Shown here: one piece after another, positions 25,359 to 52,399 of the stretch | Position numbering within the stretch: position 1 is the first letter of the stretch | Layout of the letters: each line of letters opens with the position of its first letter | Source of the DNA: Candidatus Eiseniibacteriota bacterium | GTDB lineage: Bacteria > Eisenbacteria > RBG-16-71-46 > CAZAMP01 | DNA: 64,000 nt | Direction of reading: 5' to 3' | NCBI GenBank assembly: GCA_965224245.1 | Contig: OZ245046.1 | Location: 2,912,001 to 2,976,000 of the forward strand | Position numbers and translations under genes: made by a program | The notes under the pieces: generated by a model | What the model was told of the DNA's origin: nothing | Database searches by the model: none | What the model saw: only the letters and a program-made list of their open reading frames with translations

Positions 25359-26066
25359 TCAGTCCTCGTACTGGTCGTGGCGGCGCAGCCAGTCCATGGT
25401 CCAGGGCAGCTCGTCCTCGTCACGGCCCCTGGGCAGCAGATCCATGTACTGGTACGCGCCGTTGAGCATGTCCAGCCCACGCTCGTACGTGGAGTAGGTG
25501 TGGTACACCGTGTCCGTCTCGTCACGGTAGAACACGCTGACGCCCGGCAGCTCCGCGATCACCTTCCTCGGCCGGTAGTTGTGCTCGGCGCTCCCCGACT
25601 CGACCTGCTCGTCGGTGTACGACACCTGGAAGTCGAAGTTGAAGTCGCTCTCGTGAGACGAGTACCAGGGGAAGGTCCAGCCCATTCGCCGGCGATAGGC
25701 CGCGAGCTTCTCGTATGGGGCACGGGAGACGGCCACCAGCGTTGCGTCGCGGTGCGCGAGATGAATGGGGATGCCCTCGAAGTTGTCCGCCCAGAACGAG
25801 CAGCTGGGGCAGCCCTCGTCCCAGTCGGGGCCGTACATGAAGTGATACACGACGAGCTGGCTTCGATCGGCAAACAGATCGCTCAGCGATCGCCGACCCT
25901 CTGCGCCCTCGAACACGTACGGCTTGGTGACCTTCACCCAGGGCAGGCTCCGTCGCTGTCTGGACAGCTCGTCACGCAGGCGGGTGAGCTCCTTCTCCCT
26001 GGCGAGGAGTGCCTTGCGTGCCTCGATCCACTCCGGCCTCGACACCACGGAACGATCCGACATCAT
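25359..26066 (-). CDS. DUF899 thioredoxin-like protein
   Basis: ARKALLAREKELT, YHFMYGP, GCPSCS, YHTYSTY.RG. Confidence 0.9.
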   Translation of the reverse strand: MMSDRSVVSRPEWIEARKALLAREKELTRLRDELSRQRRSLPWVKVTKPYVFEGAEGRRSLSDLFADRSQLVVYHFMYGPDWDEGCPSCSFWADNFEGIPIHLAHRDATLVAVSRAPYEKLAAYRRRMGWTFPWYSSHESDFNFDFQVSYTDEQVESGSAEHNYRPRKVIAELPGVSVFYRDETDTVYHTYSTYERGLDMLNGAYQYMDLLPRGRDEDELPWTMDWLRRHDQYED

Positions 26067-26138
26067 GCCTCCTCGAATGGGGCCGTCACTCGTGACGCAG
26101 ACTCGAGCCAGACCGCCGGGTCGTCGAGTCGTCGCACA

Positions 26139-26945
26139 CTAGTCGTTCGGGTGCAGAAGCCAGGTCAGAGCGGGCTCGAGCTCGTCTCGCCACGACGCCC
26201 ACCCGTGATCACCCGGGTAGAGATTGTACGTGACGGTCGCTCCGATTGCTCTGAATCTGGCCACCGCCGCCTCGACGCCTTCGATCTGCGAGAGCTCCTG
26301 AAAGAGCCCCGTCGGCGGATGAGAGACGAGGGTGTCGGTCTCCCGGTCACCGACGCTCAGCCAGAGCTTCACGTCGGCGCGCGGAACGCTCACCTCGTTC
26401 GCCAGAAGCCACCAGAACGACCCTGACTGACTCAGGCAGCGCGTGAAGACCGTCGGGTAGCTGAGCGAGACGTGGGCGCTGGCCAGGCCGCTCAGGCTCA
26501 TGCCACAGATCACGTTGTCGGACTCCATGATCATCGGACGCCGCGCTCGGATCCACGGGACGACGTCCCCGGCGATGAACTCGGCGTAGGACGGGTTCCA
26601 GAGGAAGTCCTCGTGGCGGGACGCCATGTCGAGTTGAGACACGAACGCGAACGACGTCGGTGGAATCGTTCCGGTCTCCACGAGACGATCGAGGACGTCG
26701 ACCGTGCCCATCTGCTCGAGGTAGAACTCCGCATCGAGAAAGAGACACAGCCGATGCTTACGCTGCGTCGGCCCGTCGAGTAGCCACACGTCACGCGCGT
26801 AGCGTCCGCGTTCGCTGCGTACGAGCTGCCGTTCGAGTGCCACGATCCAGCTCCCCGGACGACCGGCGGTCCTTTGCAGACAGCCCGTTTCCGTCTTCAC
26901 GGCGGCCGATCCCCGATCAGCGGTAGATCGCGATCTCCCGCTCAT
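26139..26945 (-). CDS. Fes-like esterase (alpha/beta hydrolase); start uncertain
   Basis: Nucleophile GMSLSG, SQSGSFWW, G.H..ASW. Confidence 0.8.
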   Translation of the reverse strand: MSGRSRSTADRGSAAVKTETGCLQRTAGRPGSWIVALERQLVRSERGRYARDVWLLDGPTQRKHRLCLFLDAEFYLEQMGTVDVLDRLVETGTIPPTSFAFVSQLDMASRHEDFLWNPSYAEFIAGDVVPWIRARRPMIMESDNVICGMSLSGLASAHVSLSYPTVFTRCLSQSGSFWWLLANEVSVPRADVKLWLSVGDRETDTLVSHPPTGLFQELSQIEGVEAAVARFRAIGATVTYNLYPGDHGWASWRDELEPALTWLLHPND

Positions 26946-27408
26946 GGCGCTCCCCGTCCGGGTCGCGCTCCGTCTCGACGCCCTCGATCCGCATCACGTA
27001 GCCGAGAGGGAACCCGTGCTCTCGGGCTCCTCTCACCACGTGCTCCTTGTACCAGTGGAACGGCTTCAGTCGCCGGTCGACGTTCGTCGCGTAGTACGTC
27101 GTGGCCGACAGGAGCCGACCCTCGATGCTCGCGACCACCACCTGCCTTTGCGCGTACCCGATGCCCAGCCCCTCCGTCCGATCGAGATCGATCTTCTCGC
27201 CTTCGCCGATCTCGAACACGACTCCGTACACGACGTCCGCGGGGCTCCTCGTCTCCACGATGTCGCACTTGCCGGATCCATCCCGGCCTACCTTGTGGAA
27301 CCGCAGCTCGTGCTCGATCAGGCCCGCCACGGTGACGACGGTCGCGGAAGGCGCCCTCAGACGCATCCTGGCCGTGGACATGTTCGAGCCGTAGGAGAAG
27401 TAGTACAT
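26917..27408 (-). CDS. Gamma-glutamylcyclotransferase family protein
   Basis: YYFSYGSNM, LDRTEG. Confidence 0.88.
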   Translation of the reverse strand: MYYFSYGSNMSTARMRLRAPSATVVTVAGLIEHELRFHKVGRDGSGKCDIVETRSPADVVYGVVFEIGEGEKIDLDRTEGLGIGYAQRQVVVASIEGRLLSATTYYATNVDRRLKPFHWYKEHVVRGAREHGFPLGYVMRIEGVETERDPDGERHEREIAIYR

Positions 27409-27568
27409 GGACTCCCCATGGCGCCGCGTCGGGTGCCGCCGAGCCGACGAACCGTCCTGGACCTCGACGACGGGCAAGCGGTCTCTCCCATGCCATCCAC
27501 GCGCGAGTTCGCGGCGATGCCGGGCATCGTCCCATGCGGATCGATCGCTGGCCCGTCGACGGGCGCCA

Positions 27569-28204
27569 TCAGTGATGGATCGCCTTGATGGCCGCCCAGC
27601 TTCGGCTGGCGACCGGCGTGTTCATCGCACAGGGATTGAACCCCGCCCCCTCCGCACCGAAGTCGATGACGCCGAGATCGTCGGACGACAGGTCGTGAAG
27701 CGCTCCGTCGGCGAACACCGATACCTCGCCCGTGAGGTCGTCGCCGCGGATGCCGAGAGTCCCGGGGCCCTCCATGGTCGCCCGGATGTAGCCCACGAGC
27801 ACCAGCTCGTCGATGCCTCCGGTCTCGAGGGGGGGATCCCACCGGATCGTCTGAAACGACATGCAGCTCGGCTCGAAAGTCAGGGGCCACACGAGCGTCA
27901 CCCCCGAGCGACAGGCTTGCCAGCGGCCGACGTGAAGCGCGGCCGAGCAGTCGAAGCCGAAGCTGACGTCGCTCACGGACTCGACGCCCGTGAGATAGAG
28001 GAACGCCCCCTGGACGACCTCGCGGTAGCCCTCGACGACCACCGAGCCACAGCCCATACCCTGGATGGCGGACCTCTCGCACGGCGGATCGTCGACCTCG
28101 GGAACCCATCGTGCAACGTGGAGGACCAGCTGTGGTCCAGCGAACGCGTGGGCGGCGTACAGTGCCGCACACGAGACCCCGGCCAGGAGCAACCTCGTTC
28201 TCAT
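27569..28204 (-). CDS. Secreted hypothetical protein with C-terminal TPVASRSWAAIKAIHH tail
   Basis: Signal peptide; tail similar to that of 16376-16894. Confidence 0.7.
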   Translation of the reverse strand: MRTRLLLAGVSCAALYAAHAFAGPQLVLHVARWVPEVDDPPCERSAIQGMGCGSVVVEGYREVVQGAFLYLTGVESVSDVSFGFDCSAALHVGRWQACRSGVTLVWPLTFEPSCMSFQTIRWDPPLETGGIDELVLVGYIRATMEGPGTLGIRGDDLTGEVSVFADGALHDLSSDDLGVIDFGAEGAGFNPCAMNTPVASRSWAAIKAIHH

Positions 28205-28321
28205 CGGACTCTCCTCCGATCGACGAAACGGCGGGAGAGGGTCCCGTCTCGGTTGTCCGAACCCCGGCAGCCTCTGATCAGCCTACCCGCCACGCACCGT
28301 CGACCGCAATGGTCGCGGGCC

Positions 28322-28840
28322 TCAGCGCACCCTCGGCAGGGTGGTCTCCCACAGACACCCGTCCGGCTCCCAGTCGATCTCGCGCGCGATCGTGATCAGC
28401 GAATCGGACACCGTGTCCAGCACCCGCGAGCATCCCGGTCGCGACACAACCGAATGGGAGCGCCGGGCCAGCTGCACGGAGAGCTCGACGCCCTCGTAGA
28501 CGGGCCAGGGCGGCGGAGTCCCGAAGCAGCCGATGACGATCTCGAGCGGACACTGCATTCCCACCTTGCTCGGAAGATCGACGTACTCGGTTCCGGTGAT
28601 GCTCCTCACCGCACGTCGCATCTGTGCGGAGCCGATGCGACCACTGAAGCATCCGACGAGGTCATCGAACCGGCGAGCGTCGAGCCTGGCAATGCCATCG
28701 CTCTTGAACTCCAGAGTGAACCGCTGACCGTCACCTCCACGCGTGAGCCGGATGACCTCGCCGGCATCGTTCGGCAGGGCACGTTCCGCGGCGTACGGCA
28801 TCGTGGTTGCGAGCAAGGCTGCGGCGACCAGAGTCATCAT
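28322..28840 (-). CDS. Hypothetical secreted protein
   Basis: Signal-like N-terminus; fills the slot between attC remnants. Confidence 0.55.
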   Translation of the reverse strand: MMTLVAAALLATTMPYAAERALPNDAGEVIRLTRGGDGQRFTLEFKSDGIARLDARRFDDLVGCFSGRIGSAQMRRAVRSITGTEYVDLPSKVGMQCPLEIVIGCFGTPPPWPVYEGVELSVQLARRSHSVVSRPGCSRVLDTVSDSLITIAREIDWEPDGCLWETTLPRVR

Positions 28841-28907
28841 GGTGTGCGTCCAGCGCCCGACGTGGGGCCGACCTGACTCCTGGCTCGTCGTCCGGCGGCC
28901 GCCGTGG

Positions 28908-29714
28908 CTAGGCGGTGGCGGTTCCCGTGACGACGTGGGCCGGTGCGCGGAACACGACCTGTCCGCCGTCGGTCACGTACTCCGCGAGGGCGCCGCTGGC
29001 CTCCTTCAGAATGTCCTGAATCAGCTCCTCGTTCAACAGGACTCCCATGACCGGCAGCCAGCCCCGGAGATCGGCCTCGACCATCGCCTCGACGCTGGGA
29101 AAGCGGGCGGTTCCGTCATGGGTCGCGACGGCCACCGACCCGACACCCGAGTCCTCGAACAGGGCGCCCAGCGCGTCCGTGTCTCCGAGCACGAAAGGCG
29201 CGCGTAGCGCGTCGGCGGCGTCGGTGCCCGCAAGACGCTCCAGCAGCTCCACTTCGATGGGATAGGCCTCCGAGTTCTCCAGGCTGTCCCAGACCGCGAC
29301 GGCCAGCCTCCCGCCCGGCTTGAGGACCCGGATCATCTCTCCGAGGGCCCGTGAGCGATCACCGAAGAACATCAGACCGAACTGGCAGCACACCGCGTCG
29401 AAGGACCGATCGGGATACGGAAGCGCCTCGGCGACACCCTCTCTCCACTCGACGTGCGGCGCCAGCTCCTTCGCGACCGCCAGCATCCCCGGCCCGGGGT
29501 CGATCCCCGCGACCGAGCCGCCGGGGCCGACGCGGCCCGCGGCCTCCCGGGCCAGAACACCGGTGCCACAGGCGACGTCGAGTACCCGATCCCCGACGCC
29601 GACCCTGGCCGCGTCGAGTACGCGAGGGCACCACTGCGCGAACAGTGCCGGCACATGTAGGTTCTCGTAGGCTCGCGCTCCGGCGATTTGCTCGTCGAGA
29701 TTGTCGTCTCGCAT
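28908..29714 (-). CDS. Class I SAM-dependent methyltransferase
   Basis: VLDVACGTG, FDAVCCQFGLMFF, VLKPGG. Confidence 0.92.
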   Translation of the reverse strand: MRDDNLDEQIAGARAYENLHVPALFAQWCPRVLDAARVGVGDRVLDVACGTGVLAREAAGRVGPGGSVAGIDPGPGMLAVAKELAPHVEWREGVAEALPYPDRSFDAVCCQFGLMFFGDRSRALGEMIRVLKPGGRLAVAVWDSLENSEAYPIEVELLERLAGTDAADALRAPFVLGDTDALGALFEDSGVGSVAVATHDGTARFPSVEAMVEADLRGWLPVMGVLLNEELIQDILKEASGALAEYVTDGGQVVFRAPAHVVTGTATA

Positions 29715-29760
29715 GATGCCTCCGTCGTCCGTTCATTGATGCCGGCGCGATCGGCGACCG

Positions 29761-30165
29761 CTATCCGGACTGCCTCGCATAGTTTCGGATCATCATCCCG
29801 GTTGCCGGCTTCATGCCCAGGCCCGAGTAGAACACCTGGAGTTCCGGGTCGCAAAAGAGATCCACCATGTAGAGGGAGGAGAGCCGCCCCAGCATCCGCG
29901 AGACGAGTCCACGCCCGATCCCTCGTCCCTGGTGGTCCGGCAGCACCTCCAGGAATGGAATGTACGCCGCCAGCACGCCATCGGTGATCGCGGTGATGAA
30001 CCCCACGACGCGACCGGACTCGTCGTCGACGGCAACGACCACGTGCGTGCTCTTCCGCAGCAGATGAAGGTGCGTCTCGGGGCTGGGTCTCCGGGGCCAG
30101 CCCTCGAAGAAGCCGATGAGCTGCTCGGCACACACCCCCTCGACGTCATCCCGGTAGCGGATCAT
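29761..30165 (-). CDS. GNAT acetyltransferase
   Basis: LEVLPDHQGRGIG, FY..LG. Confidence 0.9.
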   Translation of the reverse strand: MIRYRDDVEGVCAEQLIGFFEGWPRRPSPETHLHLLRKSTHVVVAVDDESGRVVGFITAITDGVLAAYIPFLEVLPDHQGRGIGRGLVSRMLGRLSSLYMVDLFCDPELQVFYSGLGMKPATGMMIRNYARQSG

Positions 30166-30467
30166 CTCGACTCCTTGCTCTCCGACTCACGGCTTGCTGG
30201 CCACGCCGCAGTACGAGACGAGTCATCGCCGGGGATCGGCAGGGCACCACGGCCCGTGCACCGATGGCCGGCGGCGACCTCTGAGCCAGGGGGTCGAGCC
30301 CAGATTACCGACGACGTAGCGTCCGTGCGGCGAGGCCGGGAGAAGAGGCTCTGCCACCACGCGAGGCGGTCACGACTCCAGAAGAGACCGGACGAGAAGC
30401 CGAGGTAGCCGGGCTCGAGCTCGGAGCGGCAGCGGGGACACGGTCCAACGGTCCGGCCAGCCATGAT
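30162..30467 (-). pseudogene. Small zinc-ribbon-type protein, apparently degenerate at the C-terminus
   Basis: CPRC..LEPGYL...GLFW; the second CxxC is reduced to HRCTGR and the ORF runs on into the next gene. Confidence 0.45.
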
Positions 30468-30569
30468 GCACACCTCCTCCCAGGGGCTTCGTCCCGGGTG
30501 TATCACCCCGCGCTCGCGCCGCCACGTTTGCCACCGATCCCCGCACTCGACTGCAGATGCATCTCGACG

Positions 30570-31532
30570 TCAGCCGCCGAGCGACAGCAAGACCAGGGTC
30601 TGAAGCTCGGCATCCAGAAGCTCCCTGCCGTCATACACCGACGTCAGCCGGGTGATTCGTCCCTGCGCATCCAGCTCCAGCGCGGTGATGCCCGACTTGA
30701 CGCCCATCCTCGGACTCCCGATCCATTCGAACCCGCCACCGGAATCGCTACCCACGACATGCCTCAGCTTCGCGCCTTCTCCGAATGGTGCCTCCGGGAG
30801 CACTCGACTCAGGTATTGCCGGATCTCGGACTGACCCAGCAGCTGAGCGCGAAGGGTCATGTCCTCGTAGACCGCGTCGTAGCTGAACAGACTCGAGGCC
30901 GCCTCGGCATCCGCGGCCGCGAAGGCACGCTGGAGATCGGTGGCGACCGAACGGATCTTCTGTGACGCCCTCGGATCGATGGAGCTCTCTTTGAAGTCGG
31001 TCGGGAACGTCTCCTCCGGCGTTCGCATCTTGCCGTAGAGATCGGCATCGAAGCTTCTGCTGTCCCAGTAGTCGACCCAGCGAACGACCGTGCCGTCCTC
31101 GAAATCGACCGCGCCCAGTATGCGCAGCTCCCCACCGAACAGCTCGGGTGTGTCGGTGAACGCTACGACGGCGCTCCCCGATCCCCCGATGATGCGTGTG
31201 GGATAGGACAGACCCGTCTCGGGCCAGGCCGGCATGTACTGGGCAAAGATGCCCTCGAGGGCATCGAAGCTGTTCAGTGACCAGCCGAGAGTGGCATCGG
31301 TGTAGGTCACCAGGCTCGGAGCGAAGTGCTCCATCGTCCCGTCGACATCATGACGACTCTTCGCGGTGAAGAACGAGGCGAAGAAGGTGCTCACCTCATC
31401 CGATGCGTGGCTCGTATCGACGATCTGAGGGTAGAGGGAATCACCTTCGTCCTGAGTGAGTCCAGCACCCGCTCCGAGAGCCAGACACGTCACGACGAGA
31501 ACGGCGACGAAGCGCCCTTTGGACCGGCTCAT
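30570..31532 (-). CDS. Secreted tandem SnoaL/NTF2-like protein
   Basis: Signal peptide; FF..FF.AKS.HD, RWVDYWD; second repeat FS.DAVYED. Confidence 0.75.
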   Translation of the reverse strand: MSRSKGRFVAVLVVTCLALGAGAGLTQDEGDSLYPQIVDTSHASDEVSTFFASFFTAKSRHDVDGTMEHFAPSLVTYTDATLGWSLNSFDALEGIFAQYMPAWPETGLSYPTRIIGGSGSAVVAFTDTPELFGGELRILGAVDFEDGTVVRWVDYWDSRSFDADLYGKMRTPEETFPTDFKESSIDPRASQKIRSVATDLQRAFAAADAEAASSLFSYDAVYEDMTLRAQLLGQSEIRQYLSRVLPEAPFGEGAKLRHVVGSDSGGGFEWIGSPRMGVKSGITALELDAQGRITRLTSVYDGRELLDAELQTLVLLSLGG

Positions 31533-31759
31533 GGTATTCCTTTCACGTGCGTGGTTGGGAGGTCGAGCGTCCTCGGCCCCCTGGTGTCTTCAGCAGTATG
31601 GCGTATGCCGCTGATCGGTGGCCGACCGAGGGCCGGTCCGCCTGAAGCCGCATCTTAGATGCATCCACGTAACAGCGCACCAGGTACCTTCCGGGTCTGC
31701 GACGCAACCCGTTCGCCGATGACGAGTGCGGCGCTTCCCGTCACGCCGCGATCGCGTTG

Positions 31760-41662: not shown

Positions 41663-41664
41663 GG

Positions 41665-45210: not shown

Positions 45211-45224
45211 CGCTGCACCTTTCT

Positions 45225-46154: not shown

Positions 46155-46158
46155 GACA

Positions 46159-46425: not shown

Positions 46426-46428
46426 TCC

Positions 46429-46710
46429 CTACTTCCTCCGATAGTCGTGAGGGGTGATATCCAGAACGAGGACGAGAACCCGGTCCGCCTCTACCCGGTA
46501 GATGACTCCGTACTGACCTCCAAGGCGAGATGACCGGTGTCCAGCCCACTCTCCCCGAAGCGCCTCGCCATGGAACCCCTTGATGAGGCGAAGGCCCTTG
46601 GGGCCCGACAGACGCACGATGTCCTTCCACTTCTCGTACCGCTCGAGGACCTCGACAGGCAGTCGCGACAGGCGCCGTCCAAGACGCCGATGCTCGAGGA
46701 CCTCCCACAT
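46429..46710 (-). CDS. RelE/HigB-like toxin
   Basis: YEKWKDIV..SGP.GLR.IKGFH.EAL.GEW.GHRSSRL. Confidence 0.85.
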   Translation of the reverse strand: MWEVLEHRRLGRRLSRLPVEVLERYEKWKDIVRLSGPKGLRLIKGFHGEALRGEWAGHRSSRLGGQYGVIYRVEADRVLVLVLDITPHDYRRK

Positions 46711-46745: not shown

Positions 46746-46763
46746 CCCAGTTGCGTGTGGGCG

Positions 46764-46823
46764 GCCCAACGCTTGGCTTCAGCTGCAACGCGAAGCGTTG
46801 GCGGGTGCAAGCCGTCATTCGGC
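46764..46823 (-). other. attC site
   Basis: gcccaac..ggcttcagctgcaacgcgaagcgttggcgggtgcaagcc..attcggc. Confidence 0.8.
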
Positions 46824-46850
46824 TTCCGCTCGGAGCGGGGTCGCCTGAGA

Positions 46851-47387
46851 CTACCCGGCCAAGTGCGTCGCCTCGAAGCGTCGCCCTGCAAGCACGAGGT
46901 GAGCGCGGCGGTCGGTAGATGGTAGAAGGCCATACGGCTCGAGTAGCGGCTCCAAACCCGGCTCTACGGGAACTTCAAGCGCCTGGACGAGGGGATGCCC
47001 AGTGACCGGGGCAGCCTCGCGGATTTCCAGCAATGTACCGACCCCGGGCCTTGCAAGCCATGCCGTGCGATGCTTCGCAACGCTCTCGAGGCTCCTCGGA
47101 TGGAGGAACCAGCCGCTAACCCGGGCAAGATGCTCCTCGAGGGCCGTGACGTTGACTGCGACATGGTGCAGGCCCGGCCCACGGGAGGCGAGAGCACGCG
47201 CGTACGGCCCCTCGGTTCCAAGGGCCTGCATGAGAAGCAACCGCCCCCCGCTCTCTGGTGCGCCGACGTACGCTTCGCGCGTACCTTCAGCAGGAAACTC
47301 CTCAACGGGTCCGACTGAGAGGCCGAGCGGCTCGAGCCGCGAGAGAACCGTCTGCACGTTCGCAACCAAGAGGGCAACGTGGTCCAT
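46851..47387 (-). CDS. VOC family protein (methylmalonyl-CoA epimerase-like)
   Basis: DHVALLV, RGPGLHHVA, LLEI. Confidence 0.8.
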   Translation of the reverse strand: MDHVALLVANVQTVLSRLEPLGLSVGPVEEFPAEGTREAYVGAPESGGRLLLMQALGTEGPYARALASRGPGLHHVAVNVTALEEHLARVSGWFLHPRSLESVAKHRTAWLARPGVGTLLEIREAAPVTGHPLVQALEVPVEPGLEPLLEPYGLLPSTDRRAHLVLAGRRFEATHLAG

Positions 47388-47467
47388 CGCAGCATGCTCC
47401 TTTCACACCGTCTCAACAGGTTGTCGGCAGCAACATGTGAGAGTCCGGAGGTCTGCTGGGATCTATC

Positions 47468-47575
47468 ACCGAACGGATCTGCCGTTAGGCTGCGGACGCA
47501 ACTCAATCGAGTGCAAGCCGGAACGGCTTGCACTCCTTAGAAACGCGAGCCGTCAGCTTAAACGGCTTGTTAGAC
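47468..47575 (-). other. attC site
   Basis: accgaac..gccgttaggctg..gagtgcaagccggaacggcttgcactc..cagcttaaacggc..gttagac. Confidence 0.85.
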
Positions 47576-47597
47576 GGTCGGCCCAGATTACCGTGTC

Positions 47598-48248
47598 CTA
47601 CCCCCAGCCTGCGTGAAGCCGATCCCGCACGTCGGGGAAGCGAGCAGCGATTGCCGCGAGACCGGTGGTGCATGAGGACACTAGCGTCGGCACGCTGCCC
47701 GAGGCGACGAAGAATGTGACGTTTGCCGCGATCCCTACCATTCCGGCGACACCAGGGGCGATGTCTCGGATGCTGATCTTGTACTGGGCCGCCTGAAGGT
47801 CGCGGAGGACGTGCGAGACGAAATGGTCGTAAGCGGCGCGCACGTTGAGGCCGTTTAGGTCAAGCGCCTCCTTCCAGGCCATCAGGTCGTCGAACTCCTG
47901 CTTGGTGTATCCGAGTTCCCGATAGATCTCCTCCTCGTGCTCCACCTTCGTCAGCGCCAGTCCAGGGGCGCCCGCAATCTGGGCGCCTATGAATGCAAGA
48001 GGGTCCTCGTAGGTGCTGAATGCGACCGAGTCGTCCGCGTGCAAGTAGTCGTGGCGAATGGTGTAGGTTCTTATTGACGCGTCGAGCAGTGCCAACTCCC
48101 GCCCCAACTCTGCTAGCGTACCTTCAAGCGGCTCTACGGCTCCGTGCTCGATCGCATGTCGGAGTTTCCGTATCCTTAGCCGCGCCGCGTCGGACCGTTC
48201 TTTGAGGCGTTCAATCGCCGCATGCGAGTTGTGATTGACGAACGGCAT
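47598..48248 (-). CDS. Hypothetical protein (coiled coil plus C-terminal hydrophobic helices)
   Basis: RBS GGAGGG; ORF fills the cassette between two attC sites. Confidence 0.65.
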   Translation of the reverse strand: MPFVNHNSHAAIERLKERSDAARLRIRKLRHAIEHGAVEPLEGTLAELGRELALLDASIRTYTIRHDYLHADDSVAFSTYEDPLAFIGAQIAGAPGLALTKVEHEEEIYRELGYTKQEFDDLMAWKEALDLNGLNVRAAYDHFVSHVLRDLQAAQYKISIRDIAPGVAGMVGIAANVTFFVASGSVPTLVSSCTTGLAAIAARFPDVRDRLHAGWG

Positions 48249-48292
48249 TTGTCCCTCCCCCCGGCCAATGCCTACCCGCTCGGCGTTCCGCC

Positions 48293-48331
48293 GTCTAGCG
48301 AACGATGAAGCGATGAGCCGCGTCGTTATGT
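48293..48331 (-). other. Internally deleted attC site (39 bp)
   Basis: gtctagc..gcgatgagccgcg..gttatgt; one arm is shared with the 50927 site, the partner arm is missing. Confidence 0.65.
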
Positions 48332-48607
48332 GGGTGGCCGACTCTGTCGCCCTTGCCTCCCGGGCACATCTGGAAGAGCAAGCAGCGCTTCCGGCGCGAG
48401 ATCCGCGCCGTTCGGCCAAACGACCGTCCGTGACCCGGGGTCAATAGCCACCTGTGCAAAGAACTCAGGCTCCCGCACGGCGGCAAACATCGGACCCGTG
48501 AGCAACTCGGTCAGGTCGACGATTCGGCGTACGCCGTTATCGAAAACCACTTCGAGCACCCGCCCGCCACGAGGCGTCGCCTTGACAACATGTGGAATGC
48601 TACTCAT
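48326..48607 (-). CDS. DUF2442 family antitoxin-like protein
   Basis: L.V.FDNG, GPMF, TVVWPNGADLAPE. Confidence 0.88.
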   Translation of the reverse strand: MSSIPHVVKATPRGGRVLEVVFDNGVRRIVDLTELLTGPMFAAVREPEFFAQVAIDPGSRTVVWPNGADLAPEALLALPDVPGRQGRQSRPPT

Positions 48608-48613
48608 CTGCTT

Positions 48614-48874
48614 CTACTCCAGAGGCGCGATCACAGCGAGTAGTTCGCCGTTCTGCGCCCGCTGCCAGTTGGCGGCAAGCTCCGCCTGGTGATGACGTGC
48701 CCACGTACGAACCAGTCGGTGCGCACGGCGTGGCAACCGCCCGGCCACAACGCGTGCTGACACGATCGCCACCTCGGCCTCGTACTGAGCGTAGATCGCG
48801 TGGAAGTGAGGCGGCGCCTGGTCTCGCCAGTACATGTAGATCGCAATGCCATAGAACTCCAAAACCCTCGGCAC
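48614..48874 (-). CDS. DUF4160 family toxin-like protein
   Basis: MP....FYGI.I.MY, PPHFHA.Y, W...HQ.EL..NW. Confidence 0.88.
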   Translation of the reverse strand: MPRVLEFYGIAIYMYWRDQAPPHFHAIYAQYEAEVAIVSARVVAGRLPRRAHRLVRTWARHHQAELAANWQRAQNGELLAVIAPLE

Positions 48875-48946
48875 GGACTCCCCAAGCAGTCTGGGGAGAG
48901 AAAGGCGTCGCGGGGTTCATGGCTTGTCGACCTTTGCTCCTACTCC

Positions 48947-49012
48947 ACATAACGTCTTCTCGTTCACCTGCGGGCCGGGGAGCGGGCCGTCAGGTGCAAC
49001 GGCTCATCATGT
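48947..49012 (-). other. attC site
   Basis: acataac..cgttcacctgcggg..ccgtcaggtgcaacg..atcatgt. Confidence 0.8.
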
Positions 49013-49031
49013 CCGTGCGATACTAGGAGCA

Positions 49032-49238: not shown

Positions 49239-49249
49239 GACTGTCCTCA

Positions 49250-49328
49250 GTCTGACGTTGCCTTAACCTGCGGGCGCGACCCTAGCGCAAGCAAGGGCGT
49301 GACCGACAGGTTCGAGGTAGTGTTAGAC
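49250..49328 (-). other. attC site
   Basis: gtctgac..ccttaacctg..caggttcgagg..gttagac. Confidence 0.8.
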
Positions 49329-49340
49329 GACCCCCGCGCT

Positions 49341-49631
49341 TCACGCGCCATCGTAATGATGGACGACGGTGTGCTTGAGAAGGTGTGCTTCATCGGGATC
49401 AATCACTGCCTCCCACCAGCTGGTACCGGCGAAATCCTCAAGTGCTTCCAGATCACGCCACATCGTGATCATGAGAAACTCATTCGGTGACGAAGGGAGG
49501 GGCGTGCCGATCCGCGCCTCAAGCACTCCATGTTGAGCTTGAAGCATGGGGAGTGCCTTGTTGACAAAGAACGCCTCGAACGCTTCTTGCTTGCCATCAT
49601 GCACCGTTGCTCGGAAAACCCGAATGATCAT
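49341..49631 (-). CDS. Antibiotic biosynthesis monooxygenase (ABM) family protein
   Basis: MIIRVFRA.V..GK...FE, F.MIT.W.DL.AL..FAG. Confidence 0.8.
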   Translation of the reverse strand: MIIRVFRATVHDGKQEAFEAFFVNKALPMLQAQHGVLEARIGTPLPSSPNEFLMITMWRDLEALEDFAGTSWWEAVIDPDEAHLLKHTVVHHYDGA

Positions 49632-49654
49632 CCGGTCACATCCTCTTCAAGTTC

Positions 49655-49720
49655 GTCTAGTGCCCAGCGCATCAACTGCGGCCGGCGCAGCCGGCCGTCA
49701 GCTGCATGCCGCCGTTAGGC
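49655..49720 (-). other. attC site
   Basis: gtctagt..gcatcaactgcggccggcgcagccggccgtcagctgcatgc..gttaggc. Confidence 0.82.
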
Positions 49721-49721
49721 G

Positions 49722-49997
49722 CTACGATGCCTTGTCAAGCTCCTCGCGAATGCGCTCGGCGAGGAAGATCTTGAGCAAAGACTGATACGGAACATCCCGC
49801 TTGTTCGCCAGAAGCTTGAGCTCCTCGAGAAGTGATTCTGGCAGCCGGAGGGAGATGGTCTTTGTTGAGGGCTTGAGGCCAGAGAACCGAACACGCTTCC
49901 CCTTCGACCAGTCCACGTAGTCCGTGGAGTCGTTCTCCGACCAGAACTCGCGTTCGCGTTCCTCACTCCGGTGACGCGGTATCTTCTTCTTGGGCAC
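49722..49997 (-). CDS. BrnA/CopG-like antitoxin
   Basis: EREFW...DSTDY.DW, ISLRLPE, ANKRDVPYQSL. Confidence 0.88.
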   Translation of the reverse strand: MPKKKIPRHRSEEREREFWSENDSTDYVDWSKGKRVRFSGLKPSTKTISLRLPESLLEELKLLANKRDVPYQSLLKIFLAERIREELDKAS

Positions 49998-50295
49998 TTT
50001 CGTATGCCTTTCGTTCGCGCCGGCTCATGTCGCGGGCAGAGATGACTCGAATGAGACCATCCCGAAGGGTGAAGACCAGGAACAGCCTGCGCCCTCCGTC
50101 TGTCTGCCCCAGAGCAAGATACCGACGCTCCTGCATGGAGTGCTTGTCGTCTACCACCGTTACCAGGGGCAGGTTGAAGAACGCTTGCTCGCACTCGGCC
50201 CTTGATACTTCGTGGCGATGCCAGTTCTTCTCGGCGTTCCCCTGGCCCCACCGGAACCCGGTACACCGTGCGAGTTCATCCCGTGGCTCGGCCAT
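49963..50295 (-). CDS. BrnT family toxin
   Basis: GF.W..GN..KNW.RH.V, D.KHS..E.R, VFTLR...IRVISARDM...ER. Confidence 0.9.
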   Translation of the reverse strand: MAEPRDELARCTGFRWGQGNAEKNWHRHEVSRAECEQAFFNLPLVTVVDDKHSMQERRYLALGQTDGGRRLFLVFTLRDGLIRVISARDMSRRERKAYESAQEEDTASPE

Positions 50296-50330: not shown

Positions 50331-50364
50331 TTGCCACGACTCCGCCGAGGGAGCCTTCCTGTGC

Positions 50365-50437
50365 GCCCAACGACTGGAATCCAGCGGCCCGGCCGGGCGC
50401 GAAGCGCGGTCGGGCCCGCTGCAATGACTTGTTAGGC
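50365..50437 (-). other. attC site
   Basis: gcccaac..cagcggcccggccgggcgcgaagcgcggtcgggcccgctg..gttaggc. Confidence 0.85.
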
Positions 50438-50457
50438 GGCGCGTCCCCAGCTTCCAA

Positions 50458-50907
50458 TCAGCTGAGACTCTTGGTTAAACGACGGCGCGAAAGAGGACTG
50501 AAGCCGGATCGTTCGTAGAGCGCCTGTGCTCGAGGCCTGTGCGGCTCCACTTCGAGATGAAGAGCCCGGACACCACATTCGCGGCAGAAAGCCTCCGCCA
50601 CTTCGAGTGCCTGGGACCCGATGCCGAGCGAACGGAAAGGCGCTGAAACATACAGTTCATCGAGGAAGGCGTCGCGGCCACCATACTCGAGGCTGAAACC
50701 AAAGGTCACAGCGAAGTACCCTGCCAAGGTGCCATCCGAGTTGGCGATAACCCAGAGACGTCCAAGGTTGTCGTTGGACTGCAGTTCCTTTAGTGCGGTA
50801 ACGGCAGACTGTGGATCGAAGGAGTAGCGATCGTTCTGATAGTAGCTGGCCTGTAGCTGCGCCACCAACTCGACATCGGCTTCTCTTGCAGGTCGGATGT
50901 GTGGCAT
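50458..50907 (-). CDS. GNAT acetyltransferase
   Basis: FSLEYGG, DELYV...FRSLGIG, LYERSGF. Confidence 0.9.
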   Translation of the reverse strand: MPHIRPAREADVELVAQLQASYYQNDRYSFDPQSAVTALKELQSNDNLGRLWVIANSDGTLAGYFAVTFGFSLEYGGRDAFLDELYVSAPFRSLGIGSQALEVAEAFCRECGVRALHLEVEPHRPRAQALYERSGFSPLSRRRLTKSLS

Positions 50908-50926
50908 GAGGCTCTCGCGGAGTGAC

Positions 50927-50994
50927 GCCTAAACATTCCACGCGATGAGCCGCGGGCGCCGAAGGCGACCGACGGCTCCATTGCGCAGTTAGGC
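50927..50994 (-). other. attC site
   Basis: gcctaaac..cgcgatgagccg..cggctccattgcg..gttaggc. Confidence 0.82.
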
Positions 50995-51001
50995 TGGCGA
51001 G

Positions 51002-51292
51002 TTACGCAGCCGAGTCGAGGTACTCGCGGATGATCCGAGGATGCCTTGCCGCGATGCGCAGAAGCGCAATCGCCGGCCCTTCGGGCAAGCGGCGATCTTG
51101 CTCCCAATTGCGCAGCGTGTGAACGCTGATCCCCATCGCCTCCGCGAACCGCACCTGCGTCAACCCTACGAAACGACGAAGTGCTAGAACATCCGCACCG
51201 GACTCGAACTTGCCAGCCACCAGGCGCTTCCTAACCCGCGCCGGAATGGCTCGCGCCAGCTGTTTTGCACTAAGCTCAGGAATGTCACTCAT
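51002..51292 (-). CDS. HTH (Xre) antitoxin
   Basis: LTQ..FA..MGISV.TLRNWEQ.RR.PEGPA..LL. Confidence 0.9.
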   Translation of the reverse strand: MSDIPELSAKQLARAIPARVRKRLVAGKFESGADVLALRRFVGLTQVRFAEAMGISVHTLRNWEQDRRLPEGPAIALLRIAARHPRIIREYLDSAA

Positions 51293-51578
51293 CTTCGTTT
51301 TCCCAGGAATGCCTCATAATGCTCACGCTCACGTCTGGTCGCAGGCCGAACGCTGATGATTCGCAGAACATCCTCGTCTTCTTCGGTCCACACGACCAGT
51401 ACGACACCTCGGTTCTCGGGCCGAGCGCGATGAACCGCTCCTCATCCTCCGAATGACGCTCGTCGAAGAGTTCCAGATAGTCCACCCCGGACGTGAAGAG
51501 CCGGCTCGCCTCCTCGAAGGAGAGCCCGTGCTTGGTGACGTTGGCGCGGTTCTTCTCCTCATCCCATGTGACTTCCGT
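51289..51578 (-). pseudogene. BrnT-family toxin, frameshifted near 51415
   Basis: EVTWDEEKNRANVTKHGLSFEEA...ERFIALGP continues in another frame as RGVVLVVWTEEDEDVLRIISVRPATRRER..., whose stop overlaps the antitoxin ATG. Confidence 0.8.
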
Positions 51579-51585
51579 GTGCAAC

Positions 51586-51617
51586 AATATACGCCATTGG
51601 CTTACTACGTCAATGGC
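51586..51617 (-). promoter_or_regulatory. sigma70 promoter TTGACG-N16-TATATT with operator GCCATTG-N11-CAATGGC
   Basis: Minus strand gccattgacg tagtaagccaatggcg tatatt. Confidence 0.7.
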
Positions 51618-51632
51618 TTATTTACAGTCTCA

Positions 51633-51731
51633 GCCTAACGTTGCGTTTCAGCAGCGGGCGCCTCTGGCGCGGCCCTGGCTCTGCCAGGGCCGTGACAGAG
51701 GTGATCCGTCCGCTGCAGACGCTTGTTAGGC
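51633..51731 (-). other. attC site
   Basis: gcctaac..gcgtttcagcag..ggccctggctctgccagggcc..ccgctgcagacgc..gttaggc. Confidence 0.88.
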
Positions 51732-51785
51732 GACTCCCCACGACACCTCTGATTCTTGCGGGACGCTGCGTTCGCAACTGCACGT

Positions 51786-52184
51786 CTACCTAGGAATACG
51801 TGGATCTGAGTCCGGAATCCGTCGGATCTTCGCATGCACGATGCAGGTTCCCTCAGGAGATCCGAATTGCTTGGGCCGACCGTCACTCTCGGGTGCCTTG
51901 CACACCTCCAGCGTTTCCCCAGCGAAGCGATAGATGGTCAGTTCACGACCTCGAACCCCGAGCACGTGGTGATCTTCCTGCACGTTCGTGAAGCCGGGTG
52001 GGTCAGTCTGAAAGTCCTTGTGCCTGCCGGCGGCGATTCGCACCCCGTTCCGATACGCCTCAAAACGCCCGTCGGAATGAATGCGCTCGATGGTTCCGCC
52101 CAGGTCCTCGGCCTTGCCGCCACGCACATAGGAGACGAGCTCCCACCAGCCGACGAATTCTGATGGCTGTCCGATTCTTGTCAA
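51786..52184 (-). CDS. Hypothetical protein (lipocalin-like beta-barrel?)
   Basis: F.G.W.LVS...GG, IY...G.TL.VC......RP..F; RBS GAGGAG. Confidence 0.6.
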   Translation of the reverse strand: MTRIGQPSEFVGWWELVSYVRGGKAEDLGGTIERIHSDGRFEAYRNGVRIAAGRHKDFQTDPPGFTNVQEDHHVLGVRGRELTIYRFAGETLEVCKAPESDGRPKQFGSPEGTCIVHAKIRRIPDSDPRIPR

Positions 52185-52207
52185 TGTTCAGCTCCTCAAT
52201 TGTCGCC

Positions 52208-52399
52208 GCCTAACGTATCGAGGCTCACCTGCGAGGCGCGCCTCACACCGACGTGTCGCGAAGCTCTCCTCTCCCGATGCCCGGAGGCATCGTGAATCGA
52301 CGAAGAGGAGAGAGAATCAGAGTACCGCCTCGAGCCGGAGTGCCACCGGAGCACCGAGGCGGGGCGTACGCGCCACAGGGGGCCGAACACATGTTACTG
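52208..52399 (-). other. Long, branched attC-like site at the array head
   Basis: gcctaac..ggctcacctgcgaggcgcg pairs partly with cgcgccacagggggcc..gttactg; two internal hairpins. Confidence 0.55.

Follow-up and report, generated by a model that had tools for sequence, protein, structure and literature searches.

An integrase-less integron cassette array with attC sites that decay away from clpB in a Candidatus Eiseniibacteriota genome

The window analysed here, a 64,000-nucleotide stretch of contig OZ245046.1 from a Candidatus Eiseniibacteriota bacterium (genome G000), contains 43 co-oriented minus-strand ORFs from 25359 to 52184, lying between clpB and a convergent gene (Table 1); a first-pass annotation had described about 40 small genes, all on the minus strand. 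The few plus-strand ORFs returned by a crude caller overlap minus-strand ORFs with Pfam matches. The attC matches lie on one strand and no integron integrase was found in the assembly, as the first-pass annotation had claimed, and the stretch is an integron remnant without integrase, i.e. a CALIN, an already known kind of element. Along the array, captured genes grade from recognisable mobile cassettes into ordinary-looking chromosomal genes. The BrnT gene of cassette 2 is frameshifted and has lost its start (its Pfam BrnT_toxin match covers only positions 1-50 of 77; the translations were compared with the intact copy in L016), and the RelE/YafQ-like toxin and XRE-HTH antitoxin have 64% and 83% homologues in the array of genome G021. 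No attC was found between the ORFs of 47598-48874, where the spacer from 48326 to 48245 scores like controls. The insertion-sequence fragment is a putative IS3-family element, as read from an N-terminal peptide. Upstream of the GNAT gene at 39855-40352, 341 nt (40353-40693) hold no convincing ORF.

Table 1. Features of the array and its flanks, from clpB leftward. R2 and R3, covariance model scores in bits (t, R2 training site; n, non-training). Tail part 1, 34507-39766; tail part 2, 28908-33966.
Feature	Position	Strand	R2	R3	Basis and remarks
clpB, 939 aa	52428-55247	-			Host flank directly upstream of array, co-oriented; Pfam AAA_2, ClpB_D2-small, Clp_N
Orphan attC 3' half	52206-52234	-			L'-R' ending GTTAGGC, before first cassette; 3'-half HMM 11.8 bits, E 0.023, non-training
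Cassette 1 ORF, 132 aa	51786-52184	-			0 Pfam families; GC3 0.66
attC 1	51630-51734	-	37.7 n	52.7	Cores GCCTAAC/GTTAGGC intact
Cassette 2: BrnT toxin (51285-51587), HTH antitoxin (51002-51292)	51002-51587	-			Pfam, translations
attC 2	50925-50997	-	64.1 t	51.2	Cores present, 1-nt insertion in R'
Cassette 3: GNAT acetyltransferase	50458-50907	-			Pfam Acetyltransf_1, E 4e-18
attC 3	50362-50440	-	53.2 t	49.3	Cores GCCTAAC/GTTGGGC intact
Cassette 4: BrnT (49963-50295), CopG-type antitoxin (49722-49997)	49722-50295	-			Pfam E 2.6e-22, 9.1e-32
attC 4	49652-49723	-	74.4 t	55.1	R'' intact, R' mutated
Cassette 5: ABM monooxygenase-like	49341-49631	-			Pfam ABM, E 4.9e-10
attC 5	49247-49331	-	47.5 t		R' GTT->GTC
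Cassette 6 ORF, 68 aa	49032-49238	-			No Pfam family
attC 6	48944-49015	-	71.5 t	51.5	R'' ACATGAT, AAC lost
Cassette 7 or fused cassettes: DUF4160 (48614-48874), DUF2442 (48326-48607), 215-aa ORF (47598-48245)	47598-48874	-			Pfam
attC 7	47465-47578	-	26.5 n	35.4	GTCTAAC/GTTCGGT, AAC and GTT kept
Cassette 8: glyoxalase-like	46851-47387	-			Pfam Glyoxalase_4
attC 8	46761-46826	-	56.2 t	45.2	R'' ends AAT
RelE/YafQ-like toxin (46429-46710), XRE-HTH antitoxin (46159-46425)	46159-46710	-			Pfam
Insertion-sequence fragment within array	46044-46157				blastn 92% to C1:6081546-6081659, about 78% to 7 more copies
Two-domain glyoxalase/VOC protein	45225-46022	-			Pfam Glyoxalase_6, Glyoxalase
attC 9	45141-45213	-	68.7 t	46.2	R'' AAC->AGC
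Unit between two attC sites	44888-45140	-			No listed minus-strand ORF of at least 60 aa; frame run against Pfam had 2 stops
attC 10	44816-44887	-	28.8 n	24.5	AGC/GTC cores
SAM methyltransferase cassette	44075-44797	-			Pfam Methyltransf_25, E 2.5e-21
attC 11	44053-44122	-	26.9 n		AGC/GTC; overlaps methyltransferase ORF 3' end
DinB	43436-43987	-			Pfam
Spacer, eroded attC-like	43305-43435	-			Top 1.4% of 437 controls
DoxX	42864-43304	-			Pfam
Spacer, eroded attC-like	42743-42863	-			Top 0.5% of 437 controls
109-aa ORF	42413-42742	-			
AAA_18 kinase-like	41829-42371	-			Pfam
53-aa ORF	41620-41781	-			
attC 12, weak	41605-41665	-	19.3 n	27.0	R3 match at 41602-41665
251-aa ORF	40811-41566	-			No Pfam family
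attC 13	40694-40764	-	62.8 t	36.4	R' GTT->GTC
GNAT acetyltransferase	39855-40352	-			Pfam
attC 14, last CM-detectable	39789-39863	-	63.8 t	38.5	R'' AAC->AGC
YdeI/DUF1905	39218-39766	-			Pfam; part 1
Methyltransferase	38348-39205	-			Pfam; part 1
Methyltransferase, stop lost	37339-38229	-			Pfam; part 1
DUF5829	36441-37409	-			Pfam; part 1
153-aa ORF	35800-36261	-			Part 1
GNAT	35069-35635	-			Pfam; part 1
GNAT	34507-35037	-			Pfam; part 1
Spacer with R' remnant GTCATGA (34454-34460) of preceding decayed attC	34454-34506	-			Alignments
AIG2/GGACT-like gene	34023-34433	-			Pfam GGACT; cassette family spread across phyla
Eroded attC of AIG2/GGACT-like cassette	33909-34020	-	14.3 (33909-33965)		Alignments
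CAAX protease-like, start uncertain	33118-33966	-			Pfam; part 2
GNAT	32520-33176	-			Pfam; part 2
MBL-fold	31760-32509	-			Pfam; part 2
SnoaL	30570-31532	-			Pfam; part 2
114-aa ORF	30162-30506	-			Part 2
GNAT	29761-30165	-			Pfam; part 2
Methyltransferase	28908-29714	-			Pfam; part 2
Eroded attC of methyltransferase 28908-29714	28841-28913	-			Alignable to homologues' intact attC; score above all 437 control spacers
Leftmost five co-oriented ORFs: 172 aa, 211 aa, AIG2_2, esterase, DUF899	25359-28840	-			Pfam
Convergent SBBP/FlgD-Ig protein, 1232 aa (left flank)	21651-25349	+			Pfam

The attC sites were detected with two covariance models: R2, built in this analysis, for which nine of the 14 array matches were training sites, and R3, trained only on 148 attC sites from relatives and partially independent of R2, as these sites were gathered using R2. 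R2 placed 14 sites at 39.8-51.7 kb, all on one strand (best match outside the array, 15.1 bits at 8002-8061); R3 recovered 12 of them, attC 5 and attC 11 not being reported; and neither model gave a match above noise left of 39.7 kb. All ten positions previously listed as near-canonical sites coincided with 3' ends of R2 matches (51630, 50925, 50362, 49652, 49247, 48944, 47465, 46761, 45141 and 39789; 26.5-74.4 bits), although the label was generous, with both the AAC and GTT cores kept in only four of the 14 sites. Nine of 14 sites listed as eroded were supported. Those at 44819 (28.8 bits), 44020 (about 44053; 26.9 bits) and 41605 (19.3 bits) matched R2, and 40697 is in fact a good attC (62.8 bits); set against 437 control spacers, the spacers of 42757, 38281 and 31588 ranked within the top 0.5-2.1%, and the remnants at 33912 and 28855 can be aligned with attC sites that are intact in cassette homologues. 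The other five (40392, 39176, 37465, 36330 and 35655) had weak or no support. Among 20 non-training spacers, six fell in roughly the top 2% of the 437 controls (MWU p 0.011). By models and spacer scoring no site was recognisable left of 28.8 kb, in keeping with the near-absence reported left of 28 kb.

Every measure was polar with respect to clpB, the quality of the attC sites, the state of their cores, spacer GC and ORF GC3 each shifting monotonically from that end. The R3 score dropped away from the clpB end (rho 0.75 versus position, p 0.005, n 12), and both cores were intact in 4/7 proximal versus 0/7 distal sites (Fisher p 0.035), the changes being mostly AAC->AGC and GTT->GTC. The sequence had looked more AT-rich on the right and host-like on the left, and GC content was indeed 0.594 at 49-51 kb and 0.66-0.68 at 25-35 kb, with flanks at 0.70-0.73. 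ORF GC3 rose from about 0.65 to 0.89 away from clpB (rho -0.762 versus position, p 2.8e-9, 43 ORFs), a trend present within each half of the array (p 0.02 and 0.0012), and spacers became richer in GC in the same direction (rho -0.63, p 1.4e-4). GC1 stayed flat along the array at a cassette-like 0.68, compared with about 0.74 for small genes of the host (p 0.001). In a 3.2-Mb sample, 13-gene blocks with GC1 of at most 0.675 accounted for 0.9%. Host baselines were obtained with a crude custom ORF caller.

The best reading of this polarity is a time-ordering, in which position along the array would reflect residence time. The earlier proposal of a time-ordered record was borne out for the polarity of attC sites and GC3, the equation of position with age and the fixation of the genes being more tentative. 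Substitutions were polarised in two tail genes (34023-34433 and 28908-29714). Their GC3 is 0.78 and 0.84, versus about 0.65 (8 loci) and 0.59-0.70 (4 loci) in attC-bearing homologues, with GC1 and GC2 equal; however, G000-specific AT->GC changes and their opposites numbered 10:10 and 14:11, without an absolute excess, and were more GC-ward than in the homologue lineages only relatively, third positions becoming saturated when more outgroups were used. The gradient could instead reflect source, distal cassettes of a dead array having come from GC-richer genomes (possibly the host lineage) and proximal ones from a lower-GC pool, with stochastic attC decay. Where homologues sit in lower-GC contexts, GC->AT changes are in excess (e.g., 4:17 and 14:31), so that, together with the missing AT->GC excess in G000, the cassette ancestor may have been GC-rich; furthermore, GC3 reaches 0.86 in one homologue (L074) and 0.81-0.84 in two methyltransferase homologues. 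GC1 co-varies with GC3 between genomes, yet it is unchanged along the array (rho 0.09; within-array GC1~GC3 slope -0.08 ± 0.11). Non-coding spacers and attC sites also grow GC-richer, down to the core changes, and attC score, core integrity and GC3 share one ordering, which was seen in 0/7 active arrays of relatives. We therefore consider a difference of source unlikely.

The search for an integrase left none over the cut-off of 265 bits: the best TIGR02249 match reached 68 bits in the assembly, where, at 97.4% completeness and with 27 contigs, an intI may have gone unassembled. A tblastn search with a relative's IntI found nothing near this array or a second CALIN at E<=10, nor an intI pseudogene within reach. 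IntI was above the cut-off in 21 of 41 class genomes searched, a set that includes G000. Wherever attC adjoined intI in relatives (3 loci and 7 arrays), intI was located upstream and pointed the same way as the array, which, with the orientation of the attC sites, places the attI-proximal end at the right, clpB end. The clpB orthologue in relative G001 is 73% identical and its right flank is syntenic, but synteny between G000 and G001 is broken downstream of clpB. This break, the lack of an intI pseudogene within reach, and the finding that, in the five relatives examined, the clpB orthologue is on another contig than the intI match or about 0.6 Mb away from it would also suit an array that never had its own integrase here, being built, or landing as a block, through IntI in trans (attG-type secondary-site insertion or rearrangement). 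In the CALIN figures of Cury et al. (PMC4889954), 95% of CALINs have no nearby intI pseudogene, and the origins proposed there include secondary-site insertion and rearrangement. However, what stands at the junction is not plain genomic sequence but the attC-like L'-R' half-site, for which no R''/L'' partner could be found and the whole-site model gave 8.5 bits. This fits truncation inside an attC, and attC insertion in trans would not be expected to be polar, yet this array is. We regard an origin in trans as improbable.

The genes of the attC-less tail are, to judge from their homologues, cassette-derived at least down to 28.8 kb. Over 257 aa, the methyltransferase at 38348-39205 shares 51% identity with an ORF that lies between two attC sites in the array of G007. 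The spacer to its left (38230-38347) ranks within the top 1.4% of controls, and spacers 31533-31759 and 30507-30569 within the top 2.1%. The AIG2/GGACT-like gene has 431 related loci, of which the best 80 were examined (up to 87% aa identity); an attC lies at most 100 nt downstream in eight of these 80, and 7 nt downstream in G155. Its homology to cassette homologues begins exactly at the upstream R' remnant and extends into the arms of its own attC. This site has the same L'' (17 nt) and L' (10 nt) as that of the 87% homologue, with mutated R'' and R' cores and a longer centre. Ten metagenome contigs hold 58-76% homologues of the methyltransferase at 28908-29714, with an attC at most 50 nt downstream in 4/14 loci scanned; in the eroded site of this gene, R'' (GCCTAGC) contains the stop codon, parts of the arms survive and R' has disappeared. 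Third positions differ more (0.32) than first and second positions (0.07 and 0.10), indicating past purifying selection on the genes. Neither of the two left-hand genes tested is a syntenic core gene, DUF5829 occurring in 0/205 other genomes of the class and DUF899 in 41/205, patchily and at no more than 60% identity. For the leftmost five ORFs (GC1 0.62-0.67, GC3 0.81-0.89) the support for a cassette origin is compositional only. It is very unlikely that the CALIN stops at about 39.8 kb, or by 28.8 kb at most, and that the left part is an unrelated island of small accessory genes that happen to be co-oriented. This reading would account for the missing model matches left of 39.7 kb, for left-tail spacers that fold no better than controls (median z 0.24 vs -0.09), and, in 25359-28840, for the lack of cassette homologues (no close relative of the esterase in the metagenome scan, no attC above noise at 9 loci of DUF899 homologues), but it is contradicted for 28.8-39.8 kb by the three genes with homologues in attC-bounded cassettes, two of them with alignable attC remnants and cassette boundaries. 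The cassette-like low GC1 of the five leftmost genes and the rarity of same-strand runs of at least 20 genes (one among 805 runs in the 3.2-Mb sample) also speak against it.

The stretch is thus probably a sedentary chromosomal integron remnant that lost its integrase, with cassettes added at the clpB end and older ones decayed distally. While IntI was active, cassettes (ORF plus attC) would have been inserted at the clpB-proximal end; those with a mutated attC could no longer be excised, and would have stayed and been displaced outward by newer insertions. From clpB, a first zone would hold young cassettes whose AAC/GTT cores are intact and whose composition (GC3 about 0.65) is that of the cassette pool, a second those whose attC sites still fold but have dead cores, and a third, the 11-14 kb tail, cassettes with attC nearly erased and with spacers and synonymous sites drifted toward the 71% GC host, their genes persisting as intact, selected ORFs. 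Later removal of intI and attI, together with a portion of the first attC, may have left the orphan 3' half-site beside clpB. This conveyor-belt mechanism is our inference, as is the point in the sequence of events at which the integrase was lost.

The BrnT/BrnA cassette is common to this array and the second CALIN (cassette 2 versus C1:4433875-4434526, 96.9% identity over 652 nt, homology beginning at the R' site), which counts for past integrase activity. Both cores are kept in 3/4 model sites of the second CALIN, suggesting little decay since integrase loss and therefore an older date for the distal decay here. Among the seven intI-linked arrays of relatives, attC score declines somewhat with distance in two (first 20 kb), and the three whose end falls within this span break off abruptly at host-like genes. 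GC3 rises with distance in none of the seven (rho -0.57 to +0.02; first 20 kb of each), whereas in this array it rises away from the proximal end.

The window corresponds to G000:C1:2912001-2976000 of a 6.9-Mb genome with a GC content of about 71%. Our own ORF calling, combined with Pfam searches, placed 43 ORFs between clpB and the SBBP/FlgD-Ig gene (25359-52184), every one on the minus strand, and the GC content was 0.59-0.68 within this array versus 0.70-0.73 beyond it. The cargo comprised eight GNAT acetyltransferases, four SAM methyltransferases, two glyoxalase-fold proteins and three toxin-antitoxin pairs, together with DinB, DoxX, ABM, SnoaL, MBL-fold and DUF4160+DUF2442 proteins and two AIG2-like proteins, which are families of kinds typical of environmental cassettes. 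BrnT_toxin and CopG_antitoxin genes were adjacent at 49722-50295 and form a type II toxin-antitoxin cassette. In a second pair (51002-51587), a BrnT gene with a truncated Pfam match was likewise adjacent to an HTH antitoxin gene; compared with the intact copy in a second attC cluster of the same genome, this BrnT (51285-51587) had lost its start codon and was frameshifted after about 50 codons, and the antitoxin gene was intact. Between a toxin-antitoxin cassette and a glyoxalase gene, the array contained a 114-nt insertion-sequence fragment (46044-46157; 92% identity to one genomic copy and about 78% to seven others). The methyltransferase ORF starting at 38229 had no stop where the domain of its homologues ends (37339-37480), and extended about 45 codons over a former spacer into the signal-peptide region of the DUF5829 gene.

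Positions and strands of the genes flanking the array, the half-site at its proximal end and the second attC cluster
Feature	Position	Strand	Remarks
clpB	52428-55247	minus	right flank of array
SBBP/FlgD-Ig gene, 1232 aa	21651-25349	plus, convergent	left flank of array
Orphan attC 3' half (L'-R', ending GTTAGGC)	52206-52234		proximal end, no 5' partner; half-site HMM 11.8 bits, E 0.023
Second integrase-less attC cluster	G000:C1:4432380-4436083 (L016 ~8380-12083)	plus	4 covariance-model sites and a short GCCTAAC...GTTAGAA element at start

The attC sites were located with covariance models. The first model (R1) was seeded with four in-register window sites and a hand-written structure, chosen since MAFFT alignments of eight and six sequences misaligned the 3' arms; R2 was a rebuild of R1 on its nine best window matches and was run with filters off. 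R2 reported 14 minus-strand attC sites (E<0.01) between 39789 and 51734, nine of which were training sites. The five non-training sites scored 19.3-37.7 bits, and the best R2 match outside the array scored 15.1 bits. A third model (R3), trained on 148 sites from the arrays of relatives and thus giving scores without window sites in training, recovered 12 of the 14 and, elsewhere in G000, reported only the second cluster (150 of about 15,000 first-look candidates were scored). In an integron, each cassette ORF is followed by an attC, an imperfect R''-L''...L'-R' palindrome with RYYYAAC and GTTRRRY cores, and all attC sites share a strand; the 14 sites conform to this type, although both cores were intact in only four. 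All ten positions that a first-pass annotation had listed as near-canonical attC sites were among the 14, and the covariance-model search it had proposed returned scores that trended with position. A strict RYYYAAC...GTTRRRY regular expression found only two sites in the window, and Rfam at gathering thresholds gave no match there.

The first-pass annotation had also called the array integrase-less, and the searches agreed. In the whole G000 assembly, the best match to the integron integrase model NCBIfam TIGR02249 reached 68.1 bits against a cut-off of 265 bits, and tblastn with the IntI of a relative found nothing near the window array or the second cluster, even at E<=10. Because the G000 matches skip model positions of about 182-236, the IntI-specific segment, they look like XerC/D-type recombinases. 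The lineage is nevertheless rich in integrons: among the 41 class genomes searched, which include G000, IntI scored over the cut-off in 21, and the window-derived attC model had matches at E<=1e-7 in 70 of the 151 class genomes scanned (a tally including one unpublished genome, G083). At G000:C1:4123123-4123314, a 73-aa open frame resembled tyrosine recombinases in their C-terminal catalytic part alone (54.8 bits; TIGR02249 positions 233-294); this recombinase fragment lies 310 kb from the second cluster.

With its attC sites on one strand and no integrase, the array is therefore a CALIN, i.e. a degenerate sedentary integron, in the sense used in the main text of Cury et al. 2016 (PMC4889954). 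A CALIN comprises at least two attC sites, with neighbors within 4 kb and no intI nearby; the array has 14, with a largest gap of 2.4 kb (44053 to 41665). No tyrosine recombinase with the extra domain specific to IntI (265 bits or more for TIGR02249), as a complete integron would have, was present. Sedentary chromosomal integrons are defined in the same paper by more than 19 attC sites or by presence in all genomes of a species, and the 14 covariance-model sites fall below that number; two homology-supported remnants and four spacers in the top ~2% of controls come in addition, and eroded sites of this sort would not count. CALINs as such are well known and common.

Relatives that carry an integrase indicated which end of the array is proximal. 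At ten loci (L012-L014 and L038-L044, from G005, G007, G012, G017, G021, G027, G032 and G034), intI lay upstream of a large array and in the same direction as the cassettes. In L012, L013 and L014, same-strand attC sites followed the intI 3' end, and the 15-20 kb downstream of intI held 6-25 attC sites in each of seven relatives' arrays. No array was found on the other side of intI in these relatives, and those stretches served as non-array controls. In class 1 and Vibrio integrons intI is divergent from the cassettes, unlike the co-oriented intI of this class. From the attC orientation and the upstream, co-oriented intI of the relatives, the clpB end is the proximal one. The orphan 3' half-site at this end suggests that intI and attI were removed by a deletion or rearrangement that cut through an attC. 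A complete integron has attI and the Pc promoter beside intI; the attI sequence is not conserved between integron classes, and the feature seen at the proximal end here was the orphan half-site. No intI was found beside clpB in the five relatives examined.

G000 is the sole member of its genus among the listed genomes, and the only same-family genome, G001, has no array downstream of clpB. The right flank was syntenic in G001 up to clpB; beyond that point G001 diverged and lacked both attC sites and the array genes, and a DNA search of 25359-42000 against G001 gave one trivial 50-nt match (a search run with no positive control for sensitivity). The G000 counterparts of the G001 genes downstream of clpB are dispersed (contig C11 and 0.63, 4.77 and 5.0 Mb of C1), so that the insertion point is not reconstructable. 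GC skew was negative over almost the whole window (1-64000), with the cumulative skew falling to -2.17, and the minus-strand array genes may therefore be co-directional with replication.

The quality of the attC sites decreased away from clpB. The R3 score correlated with coordinate (rho 0.75, p 0.005, n=12), and did so when the two unreported sites were set to 18 bits (rho 0.60, p 0.023). Both the AAC and GTT cores were present only at 51630, 50925, 50362 and 47465 (4 of 14 sites), that is, in four of the seven proximal sites versus none of the seven distal ones (Fisher p 0.035); the commonest core changes were AAC->AGC and GTT->GTC. These data give figures to the polarity of attC quality that had been noticed by eye, and the same was true of the impression that the right end is more AT-rich. 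ORF GC3 was about 0.60-0.79 close to clpB and reached 0.81-0.89 at the opposite end (slope -0.0061 per kb; rho -0.762, p 2.8e-9). Taken separately, the attC-positive ORFs (n=23; rho -0.63, p 0.0012) and the attC-negative ORFs (n=20; rho -0.52, p 0.02), each about half of the array, showed the same trend. The GC content of the spacers also climbed distally (rho -0.63, p 1.4e-4). GC1 was flat along the array (rho 0.09) and was 0.68 versus about 0.74 in size-matched host genes (p 0.001). In a 3.2-Mb sample of the genome, only 0.9% of 13-gene blocks had a GC1 as low as that of the left third of the array, whereas 18% had a GC3 as low (host-block baselines came from our own crude ORF caller). In the attC-less part left of about 39.7 kb, hereafter the tail, synonymous sites thus resemble those of the host and first codon positions those of cassettes. 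Folding z-scores of spacers were non-discriminating in this GC-rich DNA, in which even attC-bearing spacers had a median z of only -0.78, and those of the left-tail spacers gave no signal.

Homologues elsewhere point to a cassette origin of the tail. By tblastn, 13 of the 43 array proteins had matches in 501 kb of relatives' arrays; in a smaller comparison within the same genomes, six of the 43 matched in 135 kb of arrays versus one in 140 kb of non-array DNA. The product of 38348-39205 was 51% identical over 257 aa to that of a G007 ORF located between two attC sites. At least 431 loci of the species-representative collection were related to the AIG2/GGACT-like gene at 34023-34433. The best 80 of these (L066-L145; 51-87% aa identity) carried labels including Acidobacteriota, Thermoanaerobaculia, Gammaproteobacteria, Gemmatimonadales, Rokubacteria, Planctomycetota and others; among the same best 80, an R2-type attC lay within 100 nt downstream at eight loci and at least one same-strand attC was present at 14. 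In one homologue (G155), the attC begins 7 nt past the gene. The gene looks to be an integron cassette that has spread very widely.

In the alignment of 34023-34433 with its 87% homologue, the R' of the upstream attC, of which G000 retains the remnant GTCATGA (34454-34460), was the exact starting point of homology. Downstream, the homology extended beyond the stop codon and included the attC arms, with identical stretches of 17 nt in L'' and 10 nt in L'. Both cores of this downstream remnant were mutated and its center was longer than that of the homologue. The eroded site that the first-pass annotation had marked at 33912 can therefore be aligned to an intact attC, although R2 gave it only 14.3 bits. 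Homologues of the methyltransferase at 28908-29714 (58-76% identity) were found in ten metagenome contigs, and four of the 14 loci scanned had an attC within 50 nt downstream; the G000 spacer aligned to these attC sites, with R'' now GCCTAGC with a stop codon and R' lost. When compared with 437 control spacers from between co-directional genes, six of the 20 spacers outside the training set ranked in the top ~2% (MWU p 0.011), four of these six being left of 39.7 kb, and sense scores exceeded antisense scores (p 0.049).

Left-hand genes that were syntenic core genes of relatives would have contradicted the first-pass reading. The two tail genes checked were not core: DUF5829 was found in none of 205 other class genomes, and DUF899 was patchy (41 of 205, at no more than 60% identity). 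The cassette-borne homologues outside G000 prove that genes 5-11 kb past the last detectable attC used to be cassettes, and the tail consists of former cassettes at least down to 28.8 kb. For the five ORFs at 25359-28840, it is their composition that is consistent with a cassette origin; the esterase among them had no close relative in the metagenome scan. No attC above noise was found near DUF899 homologues at nine loci.

The arrays linked to intI in seven relatives (G005, G007, G012, G021, G027, G032 and G034) had cassettes with a GC3 of 0.65-0.73 and a GC1 of 0.62-0.69, and this GC3 was 0.08-0.18 lower than that of genes across intI. None of the seven showed a rise of GC3 with distance (rho -0.57 to +0.02), and the relation of R2 attC score to distance was mixed (-0.53 to +0.54). 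The three arrays that ended in view stopped abruptly at mixed-strand genes with a GC3 of about 0.9. Among the arrays examined, the long ameliorated tail is thus peculiar to the window locus.

Array position probably reflects the residence time of the cassettes. Every measure runs in the same direction, GC3 and the non-coding spacers shift beside a flat GC1, and the comparator arrays have no such trend. In addition, the tail copies in G000 were richer in GC3 (0.78 for 34023-34433 and 0.84 for 28908-29714) than their attC-bearing homologues (about 0.65 at eight loci and 0.59-0.70 at four loci, respectively), and GC1 and GC2 were the same. The G000 tail genes differed from these homologues mainly at third positions (0.32, versus 0.07 and 0.10 at the others), and as they are also intact, they have been under selection. 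That the gradient instead mirrors the source composition of the cassettes is rather unlikely, considering the flat GC1 beside moving GC3 and spacer GC and the trendless comparators. This alternative draws on the G000-specific substitutions, which were balanced in the two tail genes (AT->GC to GC->AT, 10:10 and 14:11); the G000-specific changes were GC-ward only relative to the lineages of the homologues, and third positions were saturated with more outgroups.

The second cluster bears on the timing of decay under the residence-time reading. Its cargo was mostly toxin-antitoxin cassettes, two of them reversed, and three of its four covariance-model sites kept both cores. A BrnT/BrnA cassette common to the window and this cluster was 96.9% identical over 652 nt; the homology began at the upstream R' and ended inside the R'' that belongs to the attC of this cassette, an attC that the second-cluster copy lacks. 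Given the retained cores and the shared cassette, the integrase must, as far as these sequences tell, have been active until fairly recently, and the decay at the distal end must then be older than its loss.

A sequence of events can be proposed in which cassettes would be inserted at attI only. A cassette flanked by dead attC sites could no longer be excised, and such cassettes would pile up, shifted distally by later insertions, as excisable ones among them were lost or recycled to the front. Unselected cassettes would decay, as may have happened to the ORF-poor unit at 44888-45140, the frameshifted BrnT and the stop-less methyltransferase that reads into the next gene, whereas selected cassettes would persist while their sites eroded and their synonymous sites drifted to host composition. 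Loss of intI would then freeze the whole array. We give even chances to the resulting picture of a stratified record, a conveyor belt on which cassettes turn permanent by losing attC cores, being pushed distally, having their sites erased and their synonymous sites ameliorated, and surviving only if selected. Integrons are known as gene-capture devices, but the fate of cassettes after capture is poorly documented, and this one locus, with intact, core-dead, eroded and erased attC in order, offers a concrete case for studying cassette fixation. Tools defined by attC stop where the sites fade and truncate old arrays. The locus also suggests that integrons have contributed more to chromosomes than attC-based censuses count. 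Should the picture hold generally, ordinary small accessory genes beside decayed arrays (GNATs, methyltransferases and the like) would include a measurable share of ex-cassettes missed by such tools, and position in a decayed array could be used as a relative clock of cassette fixation.

Large sedentary integrons, such as the Vibrio cholerae superintegron, are long co-oriented arrays with interspersed toxin-antitoxin cassettes and near-identical attC repeats. The present array resembles the superintegron in being long and co-oriented, in its toxin-antitoxin cassettes (BrnT/BrnA twice and RelE-like/XRE) and in its many GNAT, glyoxalase and DinB-type genes, but differs in having no integrase, heterogeneous attC sites and intact cores in only 4 of 14. 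With the CALINs described in the main text of PMC4889954, it shares two or more one-strand attC sites, the absence of intI both from the vicinity and from the genome, cargo other than resistance genes and an insertion-sequence fragment inside. [quoted passage not shown] The term "GC content" is absent from the main text of PMC4889954, and no positional gradient is mentioned in the portion of it covered. In the portion covered of a preprint on inactivated integrons and CALINs of Xanthomonas (10.1101/2025.06.18.660453), the integrase of an ancestral chromosomal integron platform is likewise lost or inactivated in some lineages and fixed cassette sets lie by a housekeeping gene; the lineage is another one, the anchor is ilvD rather than clpB, and it is the sharing of cassettes by strains, and no gradient inside an array, from which fixation is deduced (neither "GC content" nor "decay" nor "degenerat" occurs there). 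In the literature searched (titles and openings of abstracts, with supplements and subscription journals outside the scope), we did not find a description of a within-array positional gradient of GC or attC, although the CALIN itself is a known kind of element. The intI-linked arrays of the relatives differ from the window array in possessing IntI, in attC sites that run through all the sequence viewed or end abruptly, and in a GC3 that rises in none of the seven. They share with it the same attC type, the same cassette composition and some of the cassettes themselves, including a BrnA that is 85% identical in G005.
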